A stretch of DNA of 64,000 nt from Paraspadella gotoi (Eukaryota > Animalia > Chaetognatha), in assembly GCA_051294375.1 (NCBI GenBank), contig CM119266.1, positions 17,788,087-17,852,086 on the forward strand, in the 5' to 3' direction. This document shows, piece by piece, positions 8,363-63,790 of this stretch. The position numbers were made by a program, and so were the translations under genes. Numbering within the stretch: position 1 is the first letter of the stretch; each line of letters begins with the position of its first letter. The notes beneath the pieces were generated by a model. The model did no database searches, was not told the origin of the DNA, and saw only the letters and a program-made list of their open reading frames with translations.

Positions 8363-9781
8363 ATGTCTTTCGCCGACCGCAACATCTTGATTACCGGTGC
8401 AGCATCCGGCTTCGGTCGCGCCGTCGCAGCGGAGCTTCTGCGGAGCGGTGCCCACGTGTTTGCCCTCGACCGCAGCGCCGAGGGTCTCAAGTCGTTGACC
8501 ACGGAATCCGCCGCGGACGAGAAGATGCTGAAGACGATCTGCGCGGACATCTCCGATTGGGCGGGCGTGGAGAAGGCGTTGGCCGATCTGCCCGCCATGG
8601 ACGGCCTTGTCAACTCGGCGGGAATCGGAAGGAATTTTAACGATCTCACGCCAACCAGGTTTTTTTATTGTTGGCGTCGAGTTCATGGCTAACTTAATAA
8701 CTTTAACGTTTAACTTGTTTATTTTGTCTTTCCCAAGTTGATCTTTTGGGTTAAAGCAACCGTGCGATTGCCTGTGATGTCGGGCTGGGGCATTTCCTTA
8801 ACTGGGAAGGCGACTGCGAACCCTTAATGAGTTTCTTCTGTCAATGACCTGTTTAAATCGGCTCGGTCACAAGAGGCCGCGAACGGGGATACCCAGGGTT
8901 CGAACCCTGGACGCTGGATTTCTGTAATTTATTGTCCAAAGTCTATTTTCTAGATTGCCATTTGTCCATTTCCTCCGCCCCCCCAACCAAGTTTTCTGGA
9001 AATGGACGAGAGCGAGTTCGACGTGATGTACGCCGTCAACTTTAAAGGTTCCGTCCGTGTTACCCAGTGCGTCGTCAAAAAGATGTTGAACGCACAAGTC
9101 GAGGCGGCGTCGATCGTCAACGTTTCGTCTTTGTCTTCGTTGAAAGCGTGGAACGATCTATTACCTTATTCGGCGGCCAAGGCGGCGCTGGACAATTTCA
9201 CCAGGTTCTAGGGGATATTGGATGGAATCAGGATTCAGGAATGAATGAATGCAAGTTTTGGTATGGATTCGGGTCAGACTTCTAAAAGTTTGTGTCCTTT
9301 TCACTATTTCTTCCACGCTCTTACACCCTCTTTATCGAAATTTGTTAAATTTTGTGCGCCAGAGAGAGAATAGAATGCGCTTGCCTTCAATTCTCCTTTT
9401 TTTTGCGCTTATTCAAACAATATTCTGAGCTTTATCCCGCATATGTAAAAGGATTTAAAAAATTTAAGATTTGGACTTTTTGAGAAAAAAGTTTTTTTAA
9501 GTATCTTTAGATTTATGATTCCAAGGTGCCTCGCCCGCGAGTTAGGTCCCAATGGGATCCGAGTCAACGCCGTAAATCCCCACACCTGCGCAGAGACGGC
9601 CATGGGTCGACCCTTCTACGATTGGATGGGCGAGCGGAGGGAGAAGGTCTTGGAGGGAACACCCATGGGGAGATTCCTCAAGGCAGAAGAGCTCGTCGAA
9701 GTTATCCTCTTTCTTTTGAGCGGAAAATCTTCTTTCCTCAACGGTCTGGTCCTGCCAGTTGACGGAGGCGTCATGGCTTGA
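8363..9781 (+). CDS. Short-chain dehydrogenase/reductase, DCXR-like, 3 exons (8363-8658, 8992-9204, 9526-9781)
   Basis: TGAASGFG, LVNSAG, NVSS, YSAAK, GLVLPVDGG; two phase-2 introns with AAG acceptors restore colinearity with the paralogues. Confidence 0.9.
8752..8925 (-). mobile_element. Diverged fragment related to the twister-bearing LTR family
   Basis: Minus strand reads TTGT-GACCG-N8-TAA-ACAG-GT-CATTGAC..AGGGT.. and ends AATGCCCC..CATCACAGGCAATCGCACGGTTGCTTTA, matching the 3' half of the LTRs at 43289/43776. Confidence 0.6.
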
Positions 9782-17226: not shown

Positions 17227-17281
<55 letters not shown>

Positions 17282-20200
17282 GTTTTTATTAAAAAAAATT
17301 TGAATTAAGATTGAACTCGTTATATTAGGCATCGCATTCGTGCATGTTATCATTTTGCTATCGCAAATTATATTTCGTTAAAAATTGACGAAAGTTCTTT
17401 TTTTTTTAACCAGTTTTTTCTTCTCCTCCCTTCCGTCGTCCCCCTTTTCAAAACTCCTAATCAGGTGGGCGACATCATCACTGTGGAAAAAGACCAGCGC
17501 GTCCCCGCCGACATGGTGTTGCTCCGCACGACGGAGAAGTCCGGGTCCTGCTTCATCCGTACGGATCAATTGGACGGAGAGACGGACTGGAAGTTGCGGG
17601 TGGCCGTTCCCGCGACGCAGAGTCTCCCCTCGGACCAATCCCTTTGCGAGATCTCCGCTCAGGTCGGTCGGTCGGTCGGGCAGGCTGGACGGACAAACTG
17701 CGGTAGAATTGTATGGAACAGCTGTTTCTTGCATGGCACTGCTGTCGAACTTTGTAGAAATGCTGTAGTAGTATTGTGATTTCGATGTCCGTTTTTGGAA
17801 CCTATTTTTCTATTATTTAAATGTTTGCTGTTTATTTAAAATTATAATTAGATGAATTATAAGTTTACTTCCATCAAAATCCAGATCTACGCGGAAAAAC
17901 CCCAAAAGGACATATACAACTTTATTGGGACTTACTCGCGCACCGACGGCGTGGACCAACACGAGAGTCTCAGCGTCGAGAACATGTTGTGGTCCAACAC
18001 CGTCGTCGCTTCCGGTGAGGGGGTGGCGTTCAAACACTAAGTATTAAATCACGATATTTTAACTAAAATTATGATTGTTGAATTCCAGACGAATTTGGCT
18101 TTATTCCTTTTATGACTCTTTCCCTACTTTTTGACCATGTAAACCTCGCTTGTTCTCCCAAAAATGTAGGCGTGGCCATCGGCGCGGTTATCTACACCGG
18201 GAGCGAAACGCGCGCGGTTATGAACACGAGTCAACCGCGATCCAAATATGGGAAACTCGACGAGGAGGTCAATACCCTCACCAAGATTCTCTTCGTCGCT
18301 GTCGTCATTCTCTCTTTCGCCATGGTGGCGCTCAAAGGTGTGCGAATACGAGAGAGAGAGAGACAGAGAGAGTAAGCGAGAGAGAGAGAGACACACACAC
18401 AAACAAGCTAACATCTTCTCACCCCAGGCTTTAACGGTCCCTGGTACATCTATTTGGTCCGCTATATTCTCCTCTTCTCCTACATCATCCCCATCTCGCT
18501 CCGTGTCAACCTCGACGTGGCCAAACTCGTCTACGCTTGGTTCATACACAACGACCGGGAAATTCCCGGCACTGTCGTTCGGTCCTCGACTTTGCCTGAA
18601 GAGTTGGGCCGGATACAGTACCTCCTGTCGGATAAGACCGGTGAGGATTTGAAAATGAACTGTTTGTGAGTGAATGGAAACGTGAACCTCTACTTTTTTC
18701 ATAGGAACGCTCACCCAAAACGTGATGATCTTCAAACGCCTTCATCTCGGGACCGTCTCCTACACTAACGACACCATGGACGAAATCCAGAGCCACTTGA
18801 AGAGCATCTTTCAGTCTTCGGAGACTTCAGTAATTATGTTTCATATTTTTATTAACAATTAAAATTATTGATACTAATTTGTGGAAGTTTGCCTTCTAAA
18901 TACACTTGACTACGTTTATAAAATATACGTACATTGTGGCGGTATATTCACACCATCTCAAATCCACCATCGTTCAGCCAATCCCATTGGCTCAGAGGGG
19001 GAACGCACCATCCCAGGCGTTGCGTTCCATCCAGTCCTAACGACTTCCCTCTGCGTTGGCAAAACGAGTCCGTCCTAGGGTAACCGCGCCAGTGACTGGA
19101 GGCGTCACTGAGGGTCGGTAGCCCATAAAGCCAACAGTGAGATCCCCCATCCCAATGGGCATCACAGGCTGTTGCTATAACAAATATATATTTTAAGAAA
19201 TTGTGGATGCGTGCGACGTAAATAAATAATTTTAAAAATTATTTCCTCAGCTTGTGACCCCGCAAACGTCGATCAGCGGCAGCCTGTCCCACCCCGACAC
19301 ACCGGCGAAACGCGGGACGCAGGGACCCAAAATGAGACGGACGGTGGTGACGCGCGTCTTGGACGCCGTCAAGGCCATCGCCGTCTGCCATAACGTCACC
19401 CCTGTCTTTGAGGAATCCGTTGCCAAGGTTTAGAGAGAGAGGGAAGACAGATAAAGACAGAGATAAAGACAGAGAGAAACAGACAGACAGAGAGACAGTC
19501 ATTAACTCTACTCCATCTCCCCCAGTCGACCGACTCTGACTCGGAACCGGCGTCGATCGCGGCCAAAGTGACCTACCAAGCGTCGTCCCCGGACGAGGTG
19601 GCGCTGGTGGAATGGTGCGAGGCCGTGGGTCTCGCTCTCGTTAAACGGGACCGGACGTCGATGACGCTTAGGACGCCGGTCGGGTCCTCGCTTCACTACC
19701 AAATTCTACAGGTGATACACAATGTGACATTTGAAAACAAATTAGTTCGGATTAAATTTTTTTTTTAATGAGTTGAATTGAATCGGATTGAAAATTCGAA
19801 CTTTGGTTAGATATCATTACGTTTAATTTAGCGGATTAATACGTTATGAATTTCTTTTTAGAGCTCTTTGAAGAATAAATATTTATTGATAAAAGAAATC
19901 TCACTTTTGGAAATCGAATTTCACTTATGGAAAGAAATCTCGCCCTTTCGATACTAAGCAACCGTAAAATGCAAATGAGATTTTAATTTTGTTTATTATG
20001 GATTTTTTCAGATTTTTCCCTTTAAGAGCGAAACGAAGCGAATGGGCATCATCGTCCGCGAGGAAGAGACGGGAGAGATCACCTTCTACGAGAAGGGGGC
20101 AGATGTGGTTATGATGTCCATCGTGCAGTACAACGATTGGCTGGAGGAAGAAACGGGCAATATGGCCAGAGAGGGACTTCGGACGTTGGTGGTCGGAAAG

Positions 20201-30099: not shown

Positions 30100-33000
30100 A
30101 TGATGGCGGCGGCAGCGCTTCCGGCTGATCTGCAAAAACTGGTCCACGACGCCAAGATCCTTGTTGTCGGCGCCGGAGGAATCGGCTGCGAACTTCTCAA
30201 GAACCTCGTCCTCACGGGATTCACGGATTTGGAGGTGATTTGTGGGCGAACGAGGAGTTGATGTGGTCATTTTGTGTGCGAACCAGGCGTTGTTGCGGTC
30301 ATTTTTTGATCGTCATCTTTCTCATCTTCCCTCTCCAACTCCATCAGGTGCTCGACCTGGACACCATTGACGTCTCCAATCTCAATCGCCAGTTCCTCTT
30401 TCAAAAAGAGCACGTGGGAAAGTCCAAGGCCGAAGTGGCTCGTCAGAGCGCGCTCGCCTTTAACCCCGCAGCTCGCATCGTCGCCCACCATGATAACGTT
30501 ATGAGCGCCGAATACGGGTTAGAAAATATTTTACATTTATTTTTTTAACTTCATAACATGCACCGAAAGTATTATTATGAATAAATTTAATTTTATAATG
30601 GAGAAGACAGTGAATTTAAATTAAATTAAATTTATTCATAATAATTAATAGATTTTATATTACTTTAATTAGCATATTGTAGGGAATGTATTTAAAATAG
30701 CCTTCTTTTTTAGCATTTTCGTGTAAATATTTTTTCTTATCTTGTCATCTAATGTTTTTTATTATTATCCGTGATCTTTATTCTTTGTACATTTTCCTTT
30801 TAATTTTTCAATCTGCCTTAACCTCTAAATAAGTCATTACATTGATTCTATGAGTAAGGGATTTAAAGATATTCCATTAATGTTGTAATAAATGGAGACA
30901 TTCTTTAACGAAATATTGAGGGCCCAAGTGCCAGGCAACCCGGTTGTTGCTATAAGTAGTTAGCCTTAATCTCGAACACGCAACTGCTGGGCTCAGTGCG
31001 CCCGTATGCCACTGTCCAAGTTTGACGCCCCGCATGATCCCATGCCTATGCCCTACAACCAATCAACCGCCTCCAGAGTATGCATCCCACGCTTATGCCC
31101 TACAACTCAGTCACTATAGTGACAGTCTCGTCAGACACCTCTCAGGCCGAGATAACCTGTCTTGGGGATGCTTTGGCAGTATATTCACACCGTCTCCCCT
31201 CCGACTTCATTCAGCCTATTGGCTCAGAGGCGGGGAACACATCATCCCAACCATGCGTTCCATCCACATTTCCACAGTCCTTATTACTTCAAACAAGCGC
31301 ACAAGCCAGACCGACCATGAGTAACCGCGCCAGTGGCATGCAGCGCCACTGAGGGTCAGACACCCAACAGGTGAGATGCCCTACCCAGCTGGGCATCACA
31401 GGCAACATGGCAACCCGGTTGTAGCTATACAAATATATATATATGTATACATGTATAATTGTATATACAGAAGGCTTCATATTATAAAATGTGGTACCCC
31501 TTTTTTGTGACCAGAACACGTTCCAAGCAAATTACTGGACCAAATTTATTTAAATTTGGAATGAACGATCCCTATGTGAATACAAATAGAAATATCGAGG
31601 TGAATTTCAATAATTGACCCCTGAGCCGAGATATGGGCCCTCTGGGGGGTCACCCATTGGGGCAAAAAATGGTCAAAAAATTTCAAATATTTTTGTTTTC
31701 AACAGTTGCACAGACGTTTACTCTTCCACAACAAACCTATTTATTACCTCAAAAATGTTAGTTTACCTTAATTTTCATCCTCATGAACATCAGCTGTTCA
31801 AGTCAGATTTTGAATAATTTTGGAAATTTGGAAGTAAAACGATGAACCATGCATCTTCAAACAATGCTTAATTATTGAAAATTTATCAATTTTAGTTCTA
31901 AAATTTTTTTTTTCATGTTTAAGACGTCAATGCACCTGATGATACTAAAAAATATTAAAATATTTTTTAAAAAAAATTTTTTTAGCCCCCCAGGGGTCCA
32001 GTCCCAGGACCCTGTATATATTGTCGGGGGTTGAATATCAAAATTCGCCTCGATAGTTCCATTTATATCGTCATTAGGACTGTATATATAAAATTTCATA
32101 AAATTCGATCGAGTACTTTGGTGGGAACAGATTCTGGTCACAAAAAATGGGTACCACATTTTATAATATGAAGCCTTCTGTATATGCATATAAATATTTC
32201 TTTTTCTCTCGCCTCAGCGTGGACTACTTCCGGTCTTTCACGATGGTCATGAACGCCCTTGACAACCGCGCCGCGCGGAACCACGTCAACCGGATGTGTT
32301 TGGCCGCGGACCGACCGCTGCTGGAGAGCGGGACGGCCGGCTACTTGGGTCAAGTCACCCTCATCAAGAAGGGGGCGACCGAGTGCTACGAGTGCGTCCC
32401 CAAGCCGAGACAGAAAACTTTCCCCGGCTGCACCATCCGCAACACCCCGTCCGAACCCATTCACTGCATCGTCTGGGCCAAACATCTCTTTAACCAACTC
32501 TTCGGCGAGGAGGATCCCGACCAGGATGTCTCGCCCGACACGGAGGATCCAGAACTTGCCGGCCAGGCGGGTGAGAGAGAATTTTGTATTGTGAATTGTG
32601 AATTGAAAGAATTAATTAAAAAGAAAATAATATTCATATTCATTACATGTTGCATCTTCATCTTCCTCAAATTTCCCCCGCCTCCCCTGCCTTTCGCTCA
32701 GGAGAAAGCGCCAACTCCAAGGAAACCTTGGAGCGAAAGTCGACTCGCCACTGGGCAAGCGAAGTCGACTACGACCCTCGACGTCTCGTCGCCAAATTCT
32801 TCGCCGAAGACGTCAAGTATCTCCTCTCGATGGAGAATCTCTGGAAGAAGCGGAAGCCGCCCACTCCGCTCGACACAGATGTGAGTGGTGTTAAACCAAT
32901 GTTTTCTGTCACGATAATCGACTAAAATTGGTATGCTTTTTCAAGTTTTGTTATTTAAAAGATTGATTTATACATGATTTTATCAATGCTTAATTTCTTC

Positions 33001-39800: not shown

Positions 39801-42800
39801 TTTTTGATCAAGAGGATAATTCATATTATTGTTAATATTATATCTCTGATATGATATTTTTTATCAGATTTGGGGTTAAAAATTGTTTTTGGCAAGCAGT
39901 AAACCAGGTTTGAATTATTGTTGCATAACGTAATGATGCATTAGTTTTATTATTAATAGAGGTAAATAAAATTGATAATTTTGTTCATAAAAAGGTTACC
40001 CAAAGCCTTATAACTTTTATTTATATTTTATAATATAAAAATTATATTTTGCAGTATTTACAATATTAATAAAATTTTAATATTATTATTTTTTTAATAT
40101 ATAAATTAAGATTCATTTCTGAATCTATTTTATTGGAGATGATACAATAATTATTAAATATGAGACTGAGAAAAGGTAAGAATTTTTAATAGTAACGGTT
40201 TTAAAATTTAAATTAACAAAAAGACAAATTTGATTTTTAATAATAATATATTTTACAAACGGACATGTTTTGACTTGTCCAATTTTTAATGTCATTAAAC
40301 TCGTTATTAAAATTTTAAAAATTGTTTTTCTTAAACTTATAAATATAATTAAAAAAAGTTTATATGAAATTGGTACAACCAATATAAAAATTATCCATTC
40401 ATTTAATAAATAAGCTATCTTGTCCCTGACTTTGGACAGGCTTTAGTGGTTTAAGGCCTCCATCACACTTACAAGATAATAACATAGCAGGTTTCTGCAA
40501 GCTTTCAATCAAGACTCTCTCACAGTCTTATTTATTCACTCCCAGTGAACCTGGCTTTCCTATCAATGAAGTGGTATAATATTTCAAAGAATGTTTCAAT
40601 TGTATGAAAAGACCACTCCCTTAAGTATTAGATCGGGGAATTCTTATATTAAAATATTAAAAATTAGCTAGAAAGTAACCGCGACAGTTTTATTTTTCCT
40701 TCATAGTAGTTATCAGTTTGCCCGTTATGCTGGGAGTCCCCCCGTCTTCTGCCCCATTGCGCTACTACTTAATCTAGCAGGAAGCTGACATCAGTTTACT
40801 GCGTCATCCACTTTGCAAGACGGCAAGTCCAAAAGGCTTGTTTCCCAGTTCATAGCCACCGCAAGTTTGGTTTTGTGGCTTCGTTCTGGACTCTTAGCCC
40901 TCTGATAAAAGTTTATCTGAAAATGGTGACATACATGACATAACTTACTATGTGACATCCTGTTTAGTAAAGTGTTTATTGTCGTCGTTAAAAATCCATT
41001 TGTGGACGGGTAGGAAGCTTATGTTTTACATTGTGGCTTATTAATATTTATAAATTAGTAAAAAAGCGAACTCTGTCAAAGCAGAAAAGAAACAAAAAGT
41101 AAAAAAGCAACGACAATATCTTTATATTAGTAAATTAATCAATGGTTATAAAATTGCTTTTTCCTTTTAATATGTAGGTTTTTTGTACATCCCTGTGCAA
41201 AGAAACGTACCACTTTATAATTTTAAATTCCAGATTCTTTAAAAAGATATTTTTAAAAATTATATGTCCAAAGTCATGGGCAAGATAGCTTATTTATTAA
41301 ATGAATGGATAATTTTCATATTGGTTGTACCAATTTCATAAAAAATAATTTTAAAAAAATCAATGTTTAAATTTTATTATAATTATTCAACTGGTTTAAT
41401 AGATATGAATTTTTAAAAAGTCTAAAATAAAGAAGCACGTTTTTTTTTTTCACAGGAGTGTAGTTTTTCTTTATCATTTTATTTATCATCCATCCATCCT
41501 CTCTCAACAGGAAGTAAAGACCGCCCGAGCCGCCGTCTCCAAGTTGAACCAGTTGAAGCTGACGCCGGGACGCCGCCGCGCCGCCGTCGCCTGCAAGCGG
41601 GCGTTGGAGGAATGTGCGGCTGGCGAGAGCGGGGGATCGTTAACCGACGACGAGGCGAGTCTCGGGAGCGATTCTCGTTTGTTTTTTTTAAACTTTTTTC
41701 ATTTCCCTTTTCCGGGGATCTCTCTCCCTCCCTCCCTTTCTTTTTTGGTTTCTGTCTCTATCATGTTTTCCTCTCTTTTTTCTAGACTCCTCCCTCTCCC
41801 CTCGTCTACGATCTCGGCCCTCCCCTTCCCGTCGTCGCTTTCGACGATCCTGCCGACGAGGCTTTCTTCCCCAATCTCATTGACTACTTTCAAGCGAAGC
41901 TGCAGCGCCGCGCCGCTCTGCGGACCGACCTGCAACGCCGCTATGACGTTTTTCGCTCGCAGCTGGTCGAAATCGAACAAGAGAACACGGCGCTGAGGAC
42001 TCAGGTGGTTTTTTGTGAGTGTGAATTTTGTGTTTCGCGCGTGTGCGTTTTGGTTTTTAAAATTGTGGGTAAGGGTGGCCGCACTCAATGTGGTGAGTCA
42101 AAAATTTAGAGCGAGTACATGCTCAAACGAAAATTTAAACATTTTTAAGTATACTTTCAATAGACAAAAAATTTATTAGATACCCTAGTAATTATTTTTT
42201 TAATATTTATCTATAGATAAATAGAAAGGCAAAACATTTTGAGGGGAAATTTAAAATTTTTAGACAAGATTCAGATATCTCATAAAAAGTTGTCTGTACT
42301 TATAATTCTTTTTAAGTATTTTTATGATTACTTTTATTATTACTTATCATAAAAATATTTAAAAAGAATTATAATTTGTACAGACAACTTTTTATGAGAT
42401 ATCTGAATCTGGTCTAAAAATTTAAAATTTCCCCTCAAAATGTTTTGCCTTTCCTATCTATAGATAAATATTAAAAAAATAATTACTAGGGTATATAATA
42501 CATTTTTTGTCCATTGAAAGTATACTTAAAAATGTATAAATTTTCGTTTGAGCATGTTCTCGCTCTAAATTATTGACTCACAACATTGAGTGCGGCCACC
42601 CTTACCCACAATTTTAAAAATCAAAAATAAGAAAAACCATATAAATCGTTATCATCATAATCATCATTTTTCAATGATTTTATCAGTTTTTTAAGATTTT
42701 TACTGAGAAAACGTAAAAAATTTTAAATGATGTAATTATATTTCTTGATTTACTTTTTATGCTCTAACAGAATCCATCAAAAAATTTTAAGATTTCAAAA

Positions 42801-45800
42801 AAAAAACATTTTCTTTATATAGTAAGATAATAATTTTAATTAGGCTAGTACCCTCAGAAAAAAGCAATTTTGAAAAAAAATATTTTAATACTATAATCTA
42901 TGCTCATGATAGATTAGCATTAGCATTTAAATTTAATCGGCTATGGCTATTGTGGGGTAAAGTTTTAATTTAACATTAGTACTATAAGTATGAGGGTTTT
43001 AAGCCTAGATAATTTCCCTCAGGTGACGGAGTTGCAAGCGGCTGTACAGGCCAGGGATAAGGAAGTTTCCAGGTGAGTCCGTAAATCAAAGATTTCGACA
43101 TGATATTCATTCAATAAATGAGGTCTCTTAACTTGTGACTTCAAACGGCTTTGATGGGTTAAATATTACAATAATTCTTCTTAATCGTTAACATTGTCTG
43201 TCTAAGACCATGGAAAAACCGAAAAACAAAACTAAAGTGAAACTCTGAAAAGAAACTATAACGTTTGACGTTCATTCAATACTGCAGTTGTGGCGGTATA
43301 TTCACACCCTCACATCCATCATCGTTCAGCCAATCCCATTTGCTCAGAGGGGGAACGCACGATGCCAGGCGTTGCGTTCCATCCGTAGTCCTAACGACTT
43401 CCTTCTGCGTTTGCAAAGCCAGACCATCTTAGGATAACCACGCCAGTGACAGGAGGCGTCACTGAGGGTAGGAAGCCCCCTAAAGCAAACAGTTAGATGC
43501 CCCATCCCAATGGGCATCACAGGCAATCCGGCTGTTGCCATAAGTGGTGAGCCCTACTATCGAGCACGCAACCTTCTCAGGGTATGCTACGACAAACGCC
43601 TATACACTGCCAACTTCGTATACGCTACAAACGCCTATGCTCCGGGGGTGTGCTACGACAAATGCCTAATTGCCTATGCCCCCATAACTCTCTCTTTCTC
43701 TCCCACTATGGTAACAGTCTTATCAGACACCTTTCAGGCCTGGAGAACCTGAGTGATGTCTTGGCCTAGGGATCCTGTGGCGGTATATTCACAACGCCTT
43801 ACATTCATCATCGTTCAGCCAATGCCATTGGCTCTCTGGGAGAACGCACCATCCCAGGCGTTGCGTTCCATCCACAGTCCTAACAACTTCCCTCTGCATT
43901 GGCAAAGCGAGACTGTCCTTGGGTAACCGCGCCAGTGCAGGAGGCATCACTGAGGGTCGGAAGCACCCAAAAGCCAACAGTGAGATGCCCCTTCCCATTG
44001 GGCATCACAGGCAACTCGGCTGTTGCCATACAGTTTGTAAATGTGATTGAGCGATTCAAACAGATTTAAGACCATACAACATAATTATCTCTTACCGGAT
44101 GTCAATAGTCAATGCATATAATTTTATTTCTAAGATCTACTGTTCGAAAAATTTAGTTCTCAAAAGAATAGTCGCCTTCTTTAATGATTGAAATACAGAT
44201 CTACTCAAAAAAAAGTTTAAACTTTGAACCCCCTACTATCTCGCTTGTTTGTCGTCCTATTAATTAAATCTTGGTTTCATATGAAAGTCAAGACAAATAT
44301 CTTTCATTCGAGGATCAAAATTTTGTCGTACAATTTTTTTTTTTTGCGCAAAAATGTCTTATCCTTCTTTGTTTTATGTTTCTTTGTTTTGTTACCATGG
44401 AAACTTCAAAACAGCTAAACCCCAAAAAGAAAGCTTTGGAAGGCGGGTTTGTCAAGATATAGGATCGCCAAACAGCTTCATTTCTCTCCTAAAGCCATCT
44501 GCAGAGTTGTCAACAAATTTGAAGCAACTGGAAACCTTGGATGAGCTGTTGGAAGTAAGCGGCCTTGCATGTCCATGAAGAGCAAGGACGATGACCTGGA
44601 AAGTCTTGCAATTCAAGACCATAAGACTTCTGCAAGCCAGTTGAGAAAAAAATGGAGAGAAGAAGAATTGTTGCCAGTCATTTAACAGTGAATGGGCGAC
44701 TTTTCATGAAAAATAGAGCCCCTGGATACAAAGCCAAAGCCCCCAAAAAATTTCATGAGGAAAACGGGATGGAGGTGCTCGAAGGTTAGCCCGGAAACTC
44801 ACCTGACTGCAACATCATCGAAAATGTTTGGTCAAGGATGAAAAGGGACATTTTGCAGTACAATGCAATGACAGTCGCCAAAATCAAGAAAATTTTAAAA
44901 CACATTTGGGGGAGCTGAACCCTCCACAGCCTCTACGACTCTCTCCCTTGTCTCATGGAAACGGTGCTGGAAGCAAAAAGTGGTCCGACAATGTATTAAC
45001 TGAGTCCTAAAAAGTATTATTTTCCTTCAAATAATGAAATAAAATGCTTTTATCATAACTATTAAACTTTTTTTTGAGCAGATCTGTATTTTAATCAATA
45101 ACTTTAACCTTGTTTTGTCTATAGTGGTAGTTTTTATGCAATCTTTAACTTTTTTTTATCTTTAGTATTAGCTTTGTTTGATGCTCATATATCTACTGAA
45201 TCAACCTTGTTAAATTCGAAATAAAAAGCATATTAAGCAGGACCTTTCAATCAAGATTCTTTTACAGTTAACTATGTTAGCAACTTTTTTATTTCAACGT
45301 CTCTCTATTTCTCCTTCAGATTGAAGCGACGCCTCCAACATGCGGAGGCGTCGTCGACGGCGTTGAAGAAAACCCACGCGGAGGCGGTCTTGGCCAAGAA
45401 GGACCTCGAGTCTGAACTCGAGACTAAGGCCGCCAAGATACGCCAGGAAAGGGACGCCCGTCGCCGTCTTCAGGAGGAGATGGCGTCAAAGATGGCGCTA
45501 TGGGAGAAGCACATGAGCTCCAAGCACGCGCAGGAGATGCGGAAGCAGGCGACCAAGCACGAGGCCGAGAAGCGCGCTCAGGGCCAACGATTATTGGCAC
45601 TGAAGGAAATCATCAATCTGGAGAATCCACAAGCGCTGCTATTCGAAGCTGATTCGGGCGGCTCAGGCGCGGCCACTGCGGCGGCGTCGTCCTGCGGCGC
45701 TGCAGTTAACGACGCTGGCGCAGCTTCGTCTTCGTCTCACGTGAAGAATCTCGTCTCGTCTTTCGAACCTCGCGTCGTCGTCTCTTCTTCTTCCTCCGAA

Positions 45801-50783: not shown

Positions 50784-51143
50784 TTCCCGCCTTTCTATGT
50801 GATTGGCCTGATCTCTCCCGTTGATTCGCATATTGTGCTCACAGAACGAATAATCGGTAATTTGTGATCGGAATGTCCGATTTTTTTAAAACCAAAGTCA
50901 AAGACGCAAACTTTTTCCATTTTGTGATTAATAAGAGAAATATTTTCTTATTAAACTCAACCAACGAAAAGAAAGAAAAACAACATTTTGTGATTGAAAA
51001 ATAATTGTGACTAGTATATAGTATTAGATATCATCTACAATCGCGTTGGCCTTTTTTGTTTACAATTTTTTTTTTTTTTACACCAAAAACTTTTTTTCAG
51101 AAACTATTTCCCAATGTTTTTTGCGAGACTTTCGAATTTCGTC

Positions 51144-54100
51144 TGTCGAGGAACTAGTAGTCAGCCTGCCTCGCCAGCGTATTCCGTCCTATGACCGTCG
51201 CGCCATTACTGGGGAGACTGCCGTCAACTCCTCTCGTCGCCGGAAGTGGGGCGGGGCGCATCCAGCGCCCTTTGGTGTCGCCGTCGCGGAGTGACGCCGA
51301 GCCTTTGTCGCGAGGGTGTCAGCTCTTGTCACGCCTCCGTCAGTTGTCCACAAGTCATCGAAAGTGCCTGTGGTCGAAGTGTGGGACTCCACAAGTCTAT
51401 TGCCCACGTGACAAGACGTCATGATCTGCTACATGGTGACAAGAGTGACTGAGTGACAACATGTTCATGTCGTAAAAAGGCCGTTTTTGGGACGGGCTGA
51501 AGTCTCTCAGTGACTGGTCTCTCTGTGAACGTGAAGGTAAAGAGCATAGAAAGTAGCACACAGTAGGCTTGAACAGACAAAAAGTAGAAAACGAATCATG
51601 AATGAGTAAAATAACAAGAGATGCAACGGCATTCTCACACCGCCACCTTTTCCCGGTGACAGCAAAGGGAGCCGGAAAACTGCCCCTTGAAGGAAGGAGG
51701 GATGAATTGAGAAAAATGAGGAAAAATGAAAAATAGTAAAAGAAAAATGAGAAATGAGAAAATAGTAAAACTTACGAAAATAAACAAAAATGAGAGAAAA
51801 TGAAAATGTGCAACCTTGTAAACTATTTTTTAAGTAGCCCGTCGAAAACGTCAGTGGAGTCAAACCATATAATTTTTTTTTATAAATAAAACATTAAACA
51901 TTCATTGTACAAAAATACGGGATTGAAATAAAACTGTTCATATCATAAAATAAACATTCTCTATGAAAGTATCAATTATTTCGTACTTAAGTGTCTTAAA
52001 AATAAATCTCGGTTCAATTAAGCAAGAGATCATCAGACGAAAAAAATATTTTAAAACGTTAAAACCGATTAAATTTATCACGACGAACATAAAAAAATCG
52101 TCTAATTTCAAAGAAATAAAACCGGAAAATAAACGTGAACTGTCTAGTTACCAAGACATATTAATCTTTGACTTTCAGAAACGTGATCTTCAGTGACGTA
52201 CACAGATAGAAATTAAAATGTTACTAAATTCAGATACATGATTAACTTAACAGACAAGCACAGCATTAACGAAGGAATGAATTAAAGGGGTTGAGAAAAG
52301 GGAGGAGAATTGACATGTCTCTGGGTCCTTGCGTGTACACATAAGAAAATAAAATAATTTACAGACTTATTAACCGAGTAATTAAAATTATTTTCAACGA
52401 ATCATAATGTAAAAGGAGCGGTTAATCACGTCTCAGGTTAATACTTTATTTGATTTAAACCAAGTGCTTAATTCCAGGCGCGGACGTCGACCTCGCCTCA
52501 AAACGTGAAAAAAGATTCAATTGTGATAAGGCAAAACAATACATTGGAATAAAATTGTTCAAATAAAAAAAATTCAAATCAGTACATGTAATCAATCTTA
52601 GAAAAACGGTTAGCTGAAAAGCAATGTAAGCAACATAACACTAAAACAATGTAAAATGAATTAATCTTGCCAAAGACAATTCTAACCTAGACATAATAAT
52701 TTTTTTTATGTTTACGAAAGCAAAATCTAAAATTTTATTCAAACATTAAACGTGAAACTACTTTAACTTTAAACACGAAAAAAAAGTCAATCTAAACGTA
52801 TTACTGCTCGATAAAAAGGTGGGTCCGTCTTGTAGTTCCCAAGTTGTGTTAAGGCACTTACCGGCGCCCCACCCCTCGTCACACCGGCGGTCTAGGCATG
52901 CTATCACACCCTTCGTCGGCGATCAAGGACCTCCAGGGATGTCAAACTTCTTGCTGGCGGGCAGAACATCGCAGGCTTAGCCTCGGCAGCAACCAAGGTC
53001 ATCAAGGTCACGCTCGTCTCGTAAGAAGTCGTGACATCACGCCTCTCCCGGTGGATATCAAGTCATAGAGTCCACCCGGGGCTCCTTCCCCTTGACCTCG
53101 GTCAACGCAGGTAGGAGTATCTCGGTACTCCAGCTCTACCGCGGAAAAGGGACCGTAGTTTTCATCGTAATCTGCTAGTGACGGTCGTTGTCAAAATAAA
53201 AAATACTAAAATCTCAGGCCTCGCTCGCGCGTGGTCAGCATTCGCAGAAGCTGCCACGTGAAAACCGTCAACGAGGAACACTATCATGTCGTTGCGTTGT
53301 AATATTGTCATACAAAAATCATCGCTAAACGTTGACAGACTAAGAAACTAGAACTTTTTTTTTTTTTTTTTCAAACGTAATGAACTATCGTAAAGAAATG
53401 TATAATAAACCAATAAAAACGTAACACCTCAAATATATAAGTGTAAAATCATGGTTTTCAATTACAACATGAGTACGGGCGAATTACCCATCTCGCTGAA
53501 AACATTGATTCGAATACGTAGTATATCAAACTTAAAAAAACAGAGCAATAAAAACAAATGAGCATCTAAAAACTGACACTACACCCTAAATAAAAAACGT
53601 CGTCTGGTATAAAAGCGAGATGAGTTCTATACGATTGGGTGGTAAAGTCAGCGTGTCTTCATATTTGTCATGTCACCGCGGTCTTCGCTGAATAATTTTC
53701 CGGGCGGGGGGGGGGGAAAGAGATTTGCCGGAGCATCCCCACGGTCGTTTCGTTGGTACATCCTTTTCCACATCAATGAAAGACCCCAAAGCGTAAGACA
53801 CAAGAAGGCCTTTTTACTGTCGAGGACTAGTAGTCGCCTGCTCGCCAGGCGTATCTCGCGTCCGTATGAACCGTCGGCGCCATTACCTGGGGGAGACTGC
53901 CGTTCAACTCCCCTCGTCGCCGGAAGTGGGGCGGCCGCAAATCCACGCGCCCCCTTTGGAATGCGCCCGTCGCCGCAGCTTGACGCCCGAGGACCCTTCC
54001 TGTCGCTCCCGTGAGTGGTGTGCAGGCCTCTTTGTCACCGCCTCCGTCAGTGTGTCCACAATGTCCATCGACAAGTGTTCCTTGTGTCGGTCGTAAGTGT

Positions 54101-56990
54101 GGGACTACCTACAAGTCCTATTGCTCCACGTGACAGAAGACGTATGATCTGCTACAAGTGGTGACAAGACGTCTGACTGAGTGACAACATTTTCTAAGTC
54201 CCCGTTAAACAAGGCGTTTTAGGGAAGGGCTGAAGCTTACTCAGTGATCCTGGTCTCTCTGTGAAAAGCGTGAAGGTAACAGGCATAGAAAGTAGCACGC
54301 ACAGATAGCTTAACGAGACAAAAGAGGACCGAACCCAACGAATCATGGAATCGAGGTAAAAGGTAAACAAGTATGAGCAACGGCAATCTTGCTCAACATC
54401 GCTCCCAAGCTTTTTCCGTGACAGCAAAGGGAGCCGAAAACTGCCTTGAAGGAGGAGGGATGAATTGAGAAAAATGAGGAAACATGAAAATAAGTAAAAA
54501 GAAAAATGAGAAATGAGAAATAGTAAAACTTACGAAAATAAACAAAAATGAGAGAAAAATGAAAATGTGGCACCTTGTAAACTTTATTTTTAAGTAGCCG
54601 TCCGAAAACGTCAGTGACATCAAACCATAATAATTTTTTTATAAATCAAATTAAACATTCATTGCTACAAATACGGGATTGAAACATTAAACTGTTCTAT
54701 ATCATAAAATAAACATTCTCTATGAAAGTATCAATTATTATTCGTACTTGAGTGTCTAAAAATAAATTCGGTTCATTAAGAAAGATAGACCAAAAGAAAT
54801 ATTTTATTAAACGTTGAAAACCGATTAAATTTATCAACGACAACATACAAAAAATCGTCTAATTTTCAAAGACACCAAACCGGAAAAATAAACGTGAACT
54901 GTTACCAAAACATATTAATCTGTGACTTTCAGAAACGTGATCTTCAGTGACGTACACAGATATAAATTAACATGTTACTAAATTCAGATACATGATTAAC
55001 TTAACAAGACAAGCATTAACGAAGGAATGAATTAAAGGGGGTTGAGAAAAGGGGAGGGGAATTGACATGTCTCTGGGTTCCTTGCGTGTAACACATAAAT
55101 TTACAGACTTATTAACGACGTAAAATTAACAAATTCCAAAGCCGGACGTCCGACCAACAGAAAACGTGAAAAAAGATTCAATTGTGATAAGCAAAATTAT
55201 ACATTGGAATAAAATTGTTTCAATAATAAAAAAAATTCAAATCAGTACATGTAATCAATCTTAGAAATAAACGTTAGCTTAAAAGCAATGCAAGCAACAT
55301 AAACCTAAACAATGTTAAAATGAGATTAATCTTGCCAAAGACATTTACCTAGACATAATAATTTTTTTTTTTTACGAAAAGCAAAATCTAAATTTGATTC
55401 AAACGTTAAACGTGAAACTGCTTTAACTTAAACACGAAAAAAAGTCAATCTAAACTAATTACTGCTCATGAAAAAAGGTGGGTCCGTCTTGTCAGTCCCC
55501 AAGTTGTGTTAAGGCACTTACCGGCGCCCCCACCGCTCGTCACCGCGGTCTAGGCATGCTATCACACCCTCGTCGGCGATCAAGGACCTCCAGGGATGTC
55601 AAACTTCTTGCTGCGGGCAGAACATCGCAGGCTCTACCTCGCAGCAACCAAGGTCATGCCGAGGTCACGCTTGTCTCCGTAAGAAGTCGTGACACACGCC
55701 CTCTCGTGGGATATCAATGCATAGAAGTCACCGGGCTCGCCTTCCCTTGACCTCGTCAACGCAGGTAGAGTATCTCGGTACTCCGGCTCTACCGCGGACA
55801 AGGGACGTAGTTTTCGTCAAAATCGTATTACGGTCGTGTCAAAATAAAAAATACTAAAAATCCGGCCTCGTTGGCGCGGTCAGCATTCGCAGAAGCTTGC
55901 CACGTGAAAACCGTCAACGAGGAACACTATCATGTCGTCACGTCATAAATATTGTCATACAAAAAATAAAAATACATAAATGTTGACAGACTAAGAAAAC
56001 TAGAAATTATTTTTAGCAAACGTAATGAACGAGCATTAAAAAAACGTTTCAACCTAAAAAAAAAAAGAAATTATCGTCTTATTAAAACATATGAAACAGG
56101 CGAATTAATAATCATAGCTGAAAGATTGTTTCGATACGTCGCTAAACCAAACATTAAAACTGAGCAATAAAAAAAATACCAATATAAAAAAAATTAATAA
56201 AATCTAGGATAAAAATCGTTGTCGGTATAACAGCATCCGCAGTCCGCAGTCGTGACTGGATCATCTAATGCATCGAAGACAAAGCACCTCCGCGGCTGCA
56301 AAACAGGACCGTCGCAGGAAATTTGCATCGTTGCGCCGGCTTCGCTTAAATAATTTTTCCGCCGGGGGGGTGAAAAGAGATTTGCCGGGCATCCCCACGG
56401 TCGTCGTTGGTACAACTTTTATCCACACGCGTGAAAGACCCCAAAGGACGAAGACACAAGGGCCTTTTTACTGTCGAGGAACTAGTAGTCAGCCTGCCTC
56501 GCCAGGCGTATCTCCGTCCTATGACCCGTCGCGCCATTACTGCGGGAGACTGCCGTCAACTCCCCTCGTCGCCGGAAGTGGGCGCGCCGCATCCAGCGCC
56601 CCTTTTTGGTTCGCCGTCGCGAGTGACGCCGAAGACCCTTTGTCGGCGAGGTGTCAGCCTCTTTGTCACCGCCTCCGTCAGTTGTCCACAAGTCCCATCG
56701 AAAGTGCCTGTGGTCGAAGTGTGGGACTCCACAAGTCTATTGCCCACGTGACAAGACGTCATGATCTGCTACAAGTGGTGACAAGAACGTGACTGAGTGA
56801 CAACATGTCTCATGTCCCCGTAAAAAGGCCGTTTTGGGACGGGCTGAAGTCTCTCAGTGACTGGTCTCTCTGTGAAAACGTGAAGGTAAAGAGCATAGAA
56901 AGTAGCACACAGATAGGCTTGAACAGACAAAAAGTAGAAAACAAATCATGATGAGTAAAATAAACAGATGAGCAACGGCATCTCTCAACA
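51144..56990 (-). mobile_element. Non-autonomous three-LTR retroelement (LTRs 51144-51639, 53818-54398, 56472-56990; two ~2.1-kb internal regions)
   Basis: LTRs begin TGTCGAG and end CTCA(A)CA; single 5-bp TSD TCGTC at 51139-51143 and 56991-56995; minus-strand PPT GGGAAAAGGTGGCGG (51640-51655); ~2.66-kb periodicity; no long ORF. Confidence 0.85.
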
Positions 56991-57079
56991 TCGTCCTTTA
57001 AAGTTTTTCCCCAATCCGCTTTAATTTGACCTTTAGCCTTCCAATTTGGGCCGTGGCCACAACCCTTCCCGTTTCGGCA

Positions 57080-58382
57080 ATGCCTAAAAAACCATTCAGC
57101 GGAAAGCAAAAGAGAGAGCAACTTCGGGCGAAACGTGATCGCGTCGCCAACCGGAAGTCGCGGATCGTCGACGCCGAGGAAGAGAGCGCCCTCGCCGAGG
57201 CGGTGGCAACGCTGATGCGCCGCTGCCGGATCCCGCGACAGCGCCTCTTCCCCCGGTACCGGCGCTGCCCGCCGCTAACAAAGCCGCCGACCCCAACCGC
57301 TACAAACTTCGCTTCGCCGAAGACTCTGAAAAAGATCTCCAACGGCGGCGCCGCTTGGCGCGTCTTCCTCTCTGCCGCCTAAATCCAGAGGCCGACCTCC
57401 AACGACCCGTCGACTCCGACGACGCGGGCAGCCTCGACATGCCCAAGCGGCCTCCCTGGGGCTTCGGCGATTCTCGGGAAGAGTTAGAGCGACGGGAGGC
57501 GAGATACTTTTGTGAGTGGGTGGCGCGGGTTGGCGAGGAGTCGCACGAGTTACTTTGAGTTGAATCTTGAGACGTGGCGTCAATTGTGGCGTGTAATCGA
57601 AATCGCCGACGTCGTCCTCATCGTAGTCGACGCCAGATTTCCTTCGGTTCACTTTCCGCCTTCCGCTCTATCGTCATGTTGTGAAGAAAAGAAGAAGGCA
57701 ATGATCATGGTGGTTAATAAGGTAGGTGATGATGAAGTGGTAAGGTGAGGTATTGTGGTTCCGGGGGGGTCGGTGAGAACTGAGAGAAGTGAACTGAATA
57801 ATGGCTAAGGATGACAATTCTAGTTTGGTTTTTCATGCTCAAAATGGAATTACTTTTTATCGTCGCAATCGCTAAGCGTTTGCGACGATATTGTAACGCT
57901 TTTGCGCATAAGTGGCGTCGTCGTCGTTGTCGTCGTCGTCGTTGTTGTCGGCGTTCCAAATTATAGATCGCCTTTTTTATGATTAAATTTTGGGTGTATG
58001 AAGCTGAAAATTTATATACAGCTTCTCATCATCGATGTGCTTAAAATTGAGTCTGGACAGTTATGAAATATGTTTTATCAAAACAAACAAATTTTCTCTC
58101 TTTTATTTTCATATTTCTTTTTCTCTCTCTTTTCTCTTTAAATTACATGTCTCTCTCCCTCTTTCTTTTCCCTAGTCACTGATTCATAATCATAGGGGAA
58201 AAAAACGAGTCTGCAGCTGGCTCTGCAGGAGGTTATTCTTTTTTCTTCTTTCTCTTGCTGTTTTGCTGCTGCTTTTTGAGTCTGCAGCTGGCTCTGCAGG
58301 GGCTCTTTCTTTTTCTCTCTTTTCTCCTGCCTGCTTCTGCTGCTGCCTTTTGATTTCTTTCTTTTTTTCTGAAAATGATTTG

Positions 58383-58429
<47 letters not shown>

Positions 58430-61400
58430 TTTCTTTATGCACATAATTTGTTTCAAATTCATTAACTCTTTTTAATGTTAATGTTAAGCCGAAACATGTC
58501 CGTTTTTTATTGAAATAAAACCGTTGTTGAAAATTAATTTCAAACTCTTTTAATTATTACACAACGAAAAGAAAGGATTATACCACAATGCATTTTTATT
58601 AAAATAAAAATTGAATTAGGATTGAACTCGTAAAATTAGGCATCGCATCCGTGCATGTTATCATTTTGCTATCGCAACATCGGGTTTTTATTTCGTTCTT
58701 CTCGTCTTCTCTCTTTATTTTAATTTTTCTTTCTTTCCTTTCTATTTTTTCTTTTCTTTCTATTTTTTCTTTTCTTTCTATTTTTTCTTTCCTTTCTATT
58801 CTTTCTTTCCTTTCTATTTTTTCTTTCCTTTTTATTATTTCTTTCCATTTATTTTTTTTTTCCTTTTCTTTCTGTTTATAAATTAATTTTCTTTTCTCAA
58901 ATTTGATTTTTTTTTTTAGTATCAAAATTTGTCGTCAATCCAGATTTTTCTTATGCGATTGCGACGATCCTTACGCTTTTAAGATTTTTTGGTATCGTTT
59001 CATCTTCCTCGTCGGAAATGGCGATTTTTGAAGCATATAAGATGCTATTAAAAATTTATGAAAGTTTTATTTAGCTTATATAATATGAAAATAAAAACCT
59101 ATTAAAATATTTCGGTAAGTTTATTTACAAATTTTACATATTTTATTAACAGCTTGTTAACTATATTTATTAATAATTAAATAATAAATTTTAAAACCGG
59201 ATTTGATTTCCTTGCAAAAAGTTGAACTAAGAAAGTAAAATCCATGTTAACAAATTATTTCATTAAGTTAGTTAAAAATGTTAAAAAGTATGATTTTTAT
59301 TTAATTTTATAATTTTTGGCTTAAAATGATAGTTTTTATAAATTTTGACCAACTTAATGACATAATTTTTAAATGAAAATTATATTTTCTTACATCAACT
59401 TTTTGTAAGAAATGCGAATCTGGGATCAAAATTTTAAAATTATTATTTTTTAACTTTAGCTTAATTTTTTCTCATAAAGCTGAAGAAGCTCTGTCAAGTT
59501 TTGTTTTGATGGAAATTGATTCTGTTTTGACCTTTGAGCCTTACTGTAGTGTTATTGTATTATTGAATTTTTATTATTATTTATTATTATTTTTATTATT
59601 TTTATCCCCTTAGGTCGATCTTGTCCCAGCGCCTCTCGCCGCCGCCTGGATCTCATATTTCCGCTCCGTCTTCCCCTCCCTCCGCGTCGTATGCTTCTCT
59701 TCCTTCCCACTCACACCGGCAGAGGCGCTGTCCGCCCCCGGGACAGCCTCCGGCAAAGGACTCCACCGGAAACGAGCCCGTCGACCCATGAGCGACGCCG
59801 GACCGCGCGGCCTGCTGGAGGCGTGCCGGGATATCGTGGGTGACGCCGTGGATTTGACGCCGTGGGAGAGGAAGTTGGACGAGGAAGATCGCGGGGAAGA
59901 GGAGGAGGAGGAAGAAGAGGAGGAGATTGAAATGGACGACGACGTCCCCGATATCGATGCCGATCTTCCAGAAATAACGCCACCCTTCAAAAACGGCGTC
60001 CTCACCATCGGCTGCTGCGGATTTCCTAATGTCGGCAAGTCTTCGGTGATGAACGCCTTAGTCGGCAAGAAGGTCGTATCCGTGTCGGCCACGCCCGGCC
60101 ACACCAAGCATTTTCAGACCTACTTCTTGGCCGACAACGTCGTCCTATGCGATTGCCCCGGCCTTGTCTTTCCCTCTCGGGTCGAGAGGACCCTGCAGAT
60201 CTTGACCGGGATGTATCCTGTGTCCCAAGTGCGGGAACCGTACACCGCTGTAGGGTGAGGAAGAGGAGTTGGAATGGGGTTGAATCTTTCAATCTCATTT
60301 ACATATTGTAGTATTGAACCCTTTCGTTTGTAAAGTTTGATATAAGTTCTGTTTTTAAATTTTTTGATAGTTATTCATAGTTTTTGGCAATTTTAATGAT
60401 TAACAAGAATTATTGTATTATTTTAATTAATTAATGATAATAACTTAGCCCTTTGTACTAAAATTTAAAAAAATAGAACTCGGTGAGAGTTTTAATCTAA
60501 ATATTCTTCAGCTACTTGGCGGAGCGAATCGACCTTCCCCATATGCTTCGCCTCGATCACCCCGACGAGGACCAGCCACCCGGACGACAAGTTTGGTCCG
60601 CTATGGACGTTTGCGAGGCCTGGGCCGAGCGACGAGGATTCGTCACCAACAGGGGCGCTAGGTAGAAATTTGAGATGAACTAAAGACATGCGGGGAGGAA
60701 GATGTAAGATAAACAGGATCGGTCCATCTAATTTGTTCCGCCGCAGTGAATTTCTACTGTGCAAACAAGACATAACACGAAGTTTTGCGTGGTCACGTGA
60801 CGACACATTGTGTAGTACACAAGTCTGAAACAACTGCACAAGAAGCATTTAGTAATGTCTTACCAGTCTGCCAAGTATTAACTAAAATAACTTTCTTCGC
60901 TCGTGTATTTATAACATACACTGCCTCGGAATTCTGTCTTTTATACTTTATAGTTTTAGGATTTCAGTCACTGAGATTTGAGGTTTTTTCCTGTCTTAAA
61001 AAATGAGCAACTAACTATAGGCGAGTTATGAGCATTTTTAACGCAACTAAAAAGAAAATCTCATCTAAGGAAGGCACATTAAGAATAAAGAAAAAAAAAA
61101 ATCGAAGTATGGCAATTGCCAGGTAGCCAGTAATTTGGATGAGGTATCTCACTGTTGGCTTTGGGGGCTTCCGACCCTCAGTGACGCCTCCTGTCACTGT
61201 TACCCGAGGACGGTCTCGCTTTGCCATCGCAGAGGGAAGTCGTTAGGACTAGATAGAACGCAACACTTGGGATGGTGCGTTCCCCCTCTGAGCCAATGGG
61301 ATAGTCTGAGGAGGTGAGGCGGTGTGAATATACCACCACAAAAGGGCGATTAAAAAAAAATTCCTGGGGAGTCGGCTAGGAAGTGCAGTTGGGAAGAGGA

Positions 61401-62054: not shown

Positions 62055-63790
<1,736 letters not shown>

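Follow-up and report, generated by a model that had tools for sequence, protein, structure and literature searches.

The retrozymes described in the available parts of the literature are either plant LTR elements or animal non-LTR elements, and all of them carry hammerhead ribozymes (PMC4918200, PMC7229834). A short locus in a 64-kb stretch of the Paraspadella gotoi genome raises the question of whether an animal LTR element can be built in the same way on another ribozyme. The original prediction read positions 43289-44030 as such an element, with a twister ribozyme fold in each LTR. The LTR element is real, and the twister pattern present in both of its LTRs is convincing; judged from its sequence, the element would work like a plant LTR retrozyme if cutting occurs. 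It does not reach Rfam's twister thresholds. Below, "the window" denotes the whole 64,000-nucleotide stretch analyzed, and all comparisons with published systems refer to the accessible parts of the cited sources.

Anatomy of the element and its family

The window encodes host genes including kinesin-6/MKLP1, YAF2/RYBP, UBA2, and proteasome genes, the first three of which support the animal host assumed in the original prediction. The UBA2 protein is 92% identical to proteins from JGI and Logan data, and a quick tree of 41 rows gave it no position within a phylum; a search with an SDR returned nothing at 1e-60. The element occupies a kinesin-6 intron in sense orientation, between exons at about 41786-42060 and 45237, and at least two copies of the family are intronic on the sense strand (kinesin-6 intron and UBA2 intron).

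Positions 43289-44030 of the forward strand form a 742-bp non-coding unit in which two direct repeats surround a 233-bp interior (Table 1), and its longest ATG-initiated ORF encodes 80 aa. We regard its identity as an LTR element as almost certain. Sequence comparison confirmed each of the proposed parts: two LTRs of about 255 bp with TG...TA ends, the interior of 233 bp, the CAGT target-site duplication (TSD), and the TGG at 43545. With two LTRs, a length below 1000 bp, and no protein, the element is a TRIM-sized non-autonomous LTR retroelement. Its LTRs are 85.5% identical (K2P distance 0.148), and this copy is old and damaged. A delimitation with TG...CA ends and a 6-bp TSD was rejected; it fits at five of six positions at this copy and at only three of six at the solo LTRs.

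The boundaries were examined in contigs from DNA runs of the same species. After positions 43542 and 43543, at the 3' edge of the 5' LTR, 46 and 64 contigs of run X1 diverge into unrelated flanks, as do 62 + 80 and 62 + 62 contigs in the other two runs, and at the 5' end of the element contigs enter from AT-rich sequence. Thus, the element boundaries are fixed, and the family is very abundant. In the interior, the contigs of many other copies lack about 70 net bases (joints from 43603 to 43688-43693). The predicted U^A sites of the two LTRs, 43435^43436 and 43924^43925, are 489 nt apart; the monomer of 489 nt originally proposed therefore holds as the unit length of this copy, but many other copies are shorter by about 70 net bases, with a unit of about 420 nt. 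The longest purine run preceding the 3' LTR is 5 nt in both this element and the older copy.

Four further LTR-related copies were found in the window: two solo LTRs, an older 5'-truncated element, and a distant fragment. The solo LTRs have 4-bp flanks that match at three of four positions. The LTR of the older element (31172-31429, forward strand; hereafter copy 31174) has about 68-70% identity, and the distant fragment (8855-8753, reverse strand; copy 8855) was found by nhmmer with an E value of 0.0018. The six LTR copies within 64 kb and the summed contig depth suggest a very high-copy family, with "thousands" of members; this depth is 1e5 to 1e6 as opposed to 10-45 for single contigs (X1, X5) and is not a copy number. 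The profile of run X9, a putative RNA run, resembles those of the DNA runs and gives no evidence of expression. Core lesions are present in all six window copies, as had been noted, and at the core positions damaged in this locus 91-99% of the summed contig depth agrees with the other copies in the window.

Table 1. Features of the element, its candidate ribozymes, and related copies in the window
Feature	Position	Strand	Basis or remark
5' TSD, CAGT	43285..43288	+	sequence
5' LTR, 254 bp, TG...TA	43289..43542	+	repeat comparison; contig departures at 3' edge
A-box-like (43340-43350) and B-box-like (43376-43384) motifs	43340..43384	+	3 of 5 LTR copies, homologous place
Twister-pattern RNA of 5' LTR, P5-opened, predicted cut 43435^43436	43409..43490	+	13/13 fixed positions
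Interior, 233 bp, non-coding	43543..43775	+	length-variable within family; internal 23-bp repeat
Primer-binding site, tRNA-Trp complement	43545..43578	+	published tRNA-Trp probes (PMC5737633, PMC8220392)
Polypurine tract position	43763..43775	+	5-purine run only, here and in older copy
3' LTR, 255 bp, TG...TA	43776..44030	+	repeat comparison
Twister-pattern RNA of 3' LTR, P5-opened, predicted cut 43924^43925	43898..43978	+	score 22/23
3' LTR P5	43898-43903/43973-43978	+	
3' LTR P2	43907-43910/43927-43930	+	
3' LTR catalytic-G position	43911	+	
3' LTR T1	43913-43915/43958-43960	+	
3' LTR P1 segment, 8 nt	43916-43923	+	
3' LTR T2	43931-43932/43963-43964	+	
3' LTR P3	43933-43952	+	
3' LTR P4	43954-43956/43966-43968	+	
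3' TSD, CAGT	44031..44034	+	sequence; 4/4 match with 5' flank
Distant LTR-related fragment	8753..8875	-	different, fully paired P2 (4/4); decayed T1/T2
Solo LTR, flanks ACAT/ACAA (3/4 match)	18935..19179	+	fully self-complementary P1 8-mer; window's only Rfam twister match
Older 5'-truncated element (LTR end, PBS, interior, 3' LTR)	30931..31429	+	UBA2 intron, sense strand
Solo LTR, flanks CTTT/CTTC (3/4 match)	61108..61340	-	6-nt deletion in P2/T2

The twister pattern of the LTRs

The original description holds for the motif order, for T1, T2, P3, P4, and P5, for the C.A mismatch in P2, and for the shortness of P1; the order is that of the Rfam twister-P1 consensus line, permuted so as to open in P5. 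Both LTRs have all 13 fixed L1/L4 letters, including the catalytic G and the cut-site A; three of the remaining copies have 11-12 of them, and copy 8855 has fewer than 11. In the 3' LTR, T1 and P4 are completely paired (3/3 each) and P2 is paired at three of four positions, giving a descriptor score of 22 out of 23, and the 5' LTR is damaged, with one of four P2 pairs and two of three T1 pairs. T1 is paired 3/3 in three of the five scored copies, and T2 is intact in three of six. At the P2 pair adjoining the cut, a C.A mismatch is fixed and does not vary in the contigs; the P2 of copy 8855 is paired at all four positions. The twister core had been called established; its order and 13 of 13 fixed positions stand, but membership in the class was overstated, the Rfam evidence being one weak partial match.

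The Rfam scan of the window returned no twister at the gathering level, and none appeared at E values of 10 or below in scans of 43200-44100 and 43895-43985. The twister-P5 model gave no match in any scan, and three of the four window scans were without any twister match. The remaining match is to the core of the solo LTR at 18935. With a limit of E 10, twister-P1 is the only one of 4227 Rfam families to match it, with 12.4 bits and an E value of 3.9 over model positions 11-56 (gathering score 67.2). An RNA permuted in this way matches the twister-P1 model only in part. Complete phage twisters, 13 in about three sequence groups, score 42-54 bits and likewise stay below 67.2. The expectation that Rfam twister models would recognize the copies was thus disappointed, no copy reaching the gathering score. 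No hammerhead was matched by Rfam in the element.

Three other searches bear on the pattern. In dinucleotide shuffles of the window (n = 460, both strands), one site reached a score of 22 and none reached 21 or more with a P3 of at least 5 bp, and 5 of 84,980 LTR shuffles reached 22, all with a descriptor composed after the motif had been seen. Searching viral contigs with the core pattern yielded 34 loci, none of them a P5-type twister; 13 of the 20 scanned loci match twister-P1 at E values of 5.7e-10 to 1.3e-6. A half-molecule model built from seven phage loci placed the four close LTR copies at the top of 10 matches in the 64 kb, with E values of 0.006, 0.007, 0.16, and 0.4; this test and the viral pattern search are partly circular, since the letters are common with the candidate by construction. 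In metagenome contigs, the family-specific pattern was found in no stretch, and a looser pattern was found in nine, none of which resembles the element or combines a paired T1 with a paired P2 in the P5 order.

Compensatory changes in three stems had been cited in favor of the fold. The LTRs of one element are identical at insertion, and the double change in P5 sits in the 5' LTR and has no counterpart in the 3' LTR; it therefore arose after insertion and is no evidence for selected pairing. The changes in P3 and P2 hold: an A-U to G-C swap in P3 of copy 31174 and the different, fully paired P2 of copy 8855. Real covariation comes from these two diverged single copies. A structure count found 81% of cells paired against 37-46% at best when the structure was slid, a figure that is inflated by misaligned P5 columns in the diverged copies and should not be taken as a measure of significance. 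The four close copies show 2 departures in 50 and 6 in 60 within the core, compared with 58 in 868 elsewhere in the LTR; such an absence of extra conservation in the core is what dead copies would be expected to show. Contig variants of at least 1% in 43880-43990 are clustered in P3 and its loop, where lower depth inflates the fractions, with a few at 1-2% in T1, P1, and P2, and the fixed core letters have no variant at 1% in this interval. The sequence evidence taken together makes an active twister in the young members of the family likely.

The P1 segment has an unusual form. Exactly 8 nt separate T1 from the UAA in all six copies. In the solo LTR at 18935, which has the family's common letters, this 8-mer is self-complementary, with +2.7 kcal/mol for a 2-bp hairpin and -11.0 kcal/mol for a self-duplex, and 0.5-1.5% of random 8-mers are equally self-complementary. 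Its central dinucleotide is TA, AT, or CG across three lineages, self-complementary each time; over the whole 8-mer, self-complementarity is 4/8 in copy 31174 and 6/8 in copy 8855. Since a P1 hairpin is unstable and an 8-bp helix can form only between two copies, we suggest that P1 pairs between the two LTRs, in the manner of double hammerheads. In such a shared helix, each core would draw its upstream half from one LTR and its downstream half from the other. That cleavage depends on such a dimer is a tentative proposal, somewhat doubtful on present analysis. Hammerheads of the axolotl retrozyme, with a weak stem and a palindromic tetraloop, offer a parallel in cleaving better as dimers (PMC7229834). 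Model twisters can do without P1 (PMC5408937), and one LTR may therefore cut on its own; twister cleavage without P1 is reported to be inefficient (PMC8501958).

Priming, release, and copying

The primer-binding site (PBS) starts two bases after the 5' LTR and comprises the TGG, a block with 2 mismatches in 13, and then a 13-nt exact match deeper into tRNA-Trp, the identity of the tRNA being taken from probes printed in PMC5737633 and PMC8220392. The older copy retains part of the second block. A tRNA search in 21 viral loci for the identity of the primer returned no tRNA. Gypsy elements of the CsRn1 clade are recognized by a tRNA-Trp PBS together with a 4-bp TSD (PMC2582038), and Gypsy helpers have been linked to those animal TRIMs that make 4-bp duplications (PMC10886601). 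Because the Trp primer and the 4-bp duplication mark this clade, the extended PBS and the TSD suggest CsRn1-clade Gypsy elements as the helper, which supports the Gypsy-type helper originally proposed and narrows it further. Among the 63 of 69 long ORFs of the window that were scanned, none encodes a reverse transcriptase or integrase, and no helper is encoded there.

Upstream of the ribozyme, the LTR has A-box- and B-box-like motifs 36 nt apart, a pair that occurs by chance in 10 of 5000 LTR shuffles. They lack the YGG and GGTTC named for Helenus in the accessible part of PMC10886601, and neither ARAGORN nor Rfam found tRNA-derived sequence in the element. The motifs are a weak indication of a possible Pol III promoter.

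An animal LTR retrozyme that uses a twister is the best reading of the locus, and the element probably works in this way; the circle route, which stems from the copying model of plant LTR retrozymes (PMC4918200, PMC7761336, PMC6765202), is likewise the probable one by analogy. The pathway would start from (i) transcription across both LTRs, perhaps from the Pol III-like boxes, followed by (ii) cleavage at the two predicted sites, releasing a unit-length RNA with a 5'-OH and a cyclic-phosphate end and without terminal redundancy. Lacking such redundancy, the unit would need to be closed before tRNA-Trp-primed reverse transcription could run a full round, and (iii) its ends would be joined to form a circle, probably by the host ligase RtcB, which is reported to act in this way on the hammerhead retrozymes of animals (PMC7229834). 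Subsequently, (iv) tRNA-Trp-primed synthesis would run from the PBS through U5, the junction, and U3 and once round without strand transfer, rebuilding the LTR-interior-LTR order, and (v) a CsRn1-like integrase would insert the copy with a 4-bp duplication. More speculatively, the 8-nt P1 would pair between the LTRs to give two strand-swapped cores efficient only in the two-LTR precursor, and a circle with its single ribozyme would stay stable. The full combination, in which the first animal LTR retrozyme and first twister retrozyme has a strand-swapped twister dimer, Pol III-type transcription, and CsRn1 tRNA-Trp copying, is unlikely to hold in every part.

Several observations count against the retrozyme reading: the core shows no excess conservation among the four close copies and has lesions in all six window copies, the purine run before the 3' LTR is weak, the C.A mismatch is fixed, real covariation comes from two diverged single copies, and a gathering-level match is missing. 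The predicted unit of this copy has a modest fold, with z -1.76 and 56% pairing (metazoan retrozyme RNAs are 70% paired, PMC4918200), and single LTRs are more stably folded than their shuffles (z -2.6 and -2.8).

Among the alternatives, an active twister may merely trim linear RNA, the 5' LTR being cut, some 3' LTRs escaping, and copying proceeding by ordinary strand transfer. Trimming of the 5' end is the reported role of the Perere-3 twister variants (PMC8501958), the weak P1 and the C.A mismatch could result in partial cleavage, and the location of at least two copies in introns on the sense strand would fit release from intronic or read-through transcripts. However, both LTRs are the same at insertion, so the sequence favors neither cut. 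Plant LTR elements of the same layout, moreover, form circles (PMC4918200), and we consider trimming alone unlikely.

Less probable still is a relic: a twister that was taken over from, e.g., a Penelope-like or RTE retroelement and no longer cuts, in a family that spreads as an ordinary TRIM. It would account for the missing twister-P5 match, the fixed P2 mismatch, the 2-bp P1, and the lack of excess core conservation, but the family's common letters keep all fixed positions and both pseudoknots, and the different, fully paired P2 of the distant copy 8855 is hardly expected of a long-dead relic. Tested natural twisters tolerate flaws in P1 and P2 but not pseudoknot or catalytic changes (PMC11662667); the flaws here are confined to these tolerated parts, and the sensitive parts are intact. 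A Penelope-type origin of the insertions themselves was rejected, as a PBS and a 4-bp TSD are present. Chance resemblance inside a hairpin-rich LTR, to which the weak Rfam score of 12.4 bits and several other hairpins in the LTR might point, is highly improbable given the shuffle tests and the retrieval of Rfam-recognized phage twisters by the same pattern.

Relation to known systems

With plant LTR retrozymes (PMC4918200) the element shares the non-coding interior, a ribozyme pattern in both LTRs, the 4-bp TSD, a Gypsy-type PBS, solo LTRs, and the cut-to-cut unit as the proposed circle. It differs in the animal host, the twister pattern in place of a type III hammerhead, and tRNA-Trp in place of tRNA-Met, as well as in size and polypurine tract: the plant unit is 600-1000 nt, whereas here the whole element is 742 bp, the predicted unit 420-490 nt, and the tract weak. 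The element thus has the LTRs, 4-bp TSD, Gypsy-type PBS, and non-coding interior of a plant LTR retrozyme and lacks its hammerhead. Animal non-LTR retrozymes (PMC7229834) have in common with it the animal host and a small ribozyme-bounded unit, and those of amphibians also a weak stem with a palindromic loop and better cutting as dimers, but their hammerheads are of type I, they form tandem arrays that lack LTRs and a PBS, their TSDs are longer, and their helpers are Penelope-like.

Type P5 twisters (RF02684, RF03160; PMC5408937) share the L1/L4 letters and T1, T2, P2, P3, and P4 in the same permutation, with ends in P5, and the present pattern differs from them in its 8-nt self-complementary P1, the C.A at the base of P2, and the presence of both P3 and P5. 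The Perere-3 twister T-variants of Schistosoma mansoni (PMC8501958) are also imperfect-P1 twisters in an animal retroelement; Perere-3, however, is a non-LTR RTE element with one P1-type ribozyme at its 5' end and no circle. Animal TRIMs, including Helenus (PMC10886601), are likewise below 1 kb and Gypsy-dependent, with two LTRs, a PBS, and a 4-bp TSD; Trp primers occur among them, as do possible Pol III boxes in the LTR, but no ribozyme is reported in the accessible part of that source, and none of five motifs of the element matched its supplement. CsRn1-clade Ty3/gypsy elements (PMC2582038) share the tRNA-Trp PBS and 4-bp TSD but are autonomous and coding, and none was found in the 64-kb window.

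The literature searched contained neither an LTR element bearing a twister nor an LTR retrozyme of an animal; Repbase, Dfam, and most subscription journals lie outside it, and the family may be listed there. It may also be among the CHiTA candidates, although that study covers type-P1 forms. As stated in 2020, animal retrozymes are without LTR, PBS, and polypurine tract (PMC7229834). For twisters in retroelements, the accessible text of a 2026 paper cites only Perere-3 (PMC13725137), that of a 2026 preprint on animal retrozymes contains no occurrence of "twister" (bioRxiv 10.64898/2026.07.22.740005), and the available parts of PMC5680766, PMC10085705, and bioRxiv 10.1101/2022.07.19.500677 hold nothing contrary. 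Beyond the original prediction, the new features are the extended tRNA-Trp PBS, the very high copy number, the self-complementary P1, the weak polypurine tract, and the Pol III-box-like motifs.

If the proposed reading is true, twisters in both LTRs of an animal element would break both the plant/animal division and the hammerhead rule, and would show that parasitism of the Gypsy machinery by means of a ribozyme and a circle arose again with another catalyst. Twisters, whose biological roles are barely known, would be given a part in producing circular RNA in a nuclear genome, and their paired form would be a natural architecture of a new kind. With possibly thousands of copies in the family, some of them in introns of essential genes, each of these steps is cheap to test.

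Box-like motifs in the LTR

The A-box-like and B-box-like motifs in the LTR of the non-coding element at 43289-44030, a candidate retrozyme (see table), were also found as a pair at homologous places of other LTR copies in the window (both in 3 of 5 LTR copies), and the B-box-like motif falls within an 8-bp stem. Runs of four T residues are absent across the element. Judged by sequence, these motifs possibly constitute a Pol III promoter like that of the Helenus TRIMs, animal elements with a tRNA-derived promoter in the LTR (PMC10886601).

Intronic copies and neighboring repeats

Two copies, both in sense orientation, occupy an intron of an essential gene: 43289-44030 in kinesin-6/MKLP1 and the older, 5'-truncated 30931-31429 in UBA2. 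Both carry damage; if the ribozyme were active at such sites, the host pre-mRNA would be cut. Immediately 3' of the copy at 43289-44030, inverted repeats of 40 bp (92.5%), ~900 bp apart (44181-45101), possibly delimit a second MITE. An end related to the MITE-like element of the kinesin intron is found at 62341-62476. Long ORFs of the tandem repeat had no Pfam match. The distant LTR fragment 8753-8875 sits within the short-chain dehydrogenase cluster.

Features of the window and of one viral contig
Feature	Position	Details
A-box-like + B-box-like motifs	43340-43384	36 nt apart; upstream of predicted ribozyme
MITE-like element, kinesin intron	40349-41354	terminal inverted repeats 90 bp, 92%
Tandem repeat	51143-56993	units ~2.7 kb, 81-92% identical
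Dispersed repeat	16798-17366, 57893-58677	70-92% identical; simple-repeat-rich
Short-chain dehydrogenase gene copies or fragments	8-473, 7242-8012, 8363-8430, 9034-9088	clustered
Assembly gap	21365-21374	10 N
manA RNA	L026:108-309	viral contig; 162 bits

Viral and metagenome twisters of type P1

Complete type-P1 twisters were observed among loci returned by pattern searches of viral and metagenome contigs: about 22 loci of L001-L034, and L019, L022, and L033; the 13 that were scored reached 42-54 bits, under the Rfam gathering threshold. By appearance, L036 is alike to the complete twisters of other such loci.
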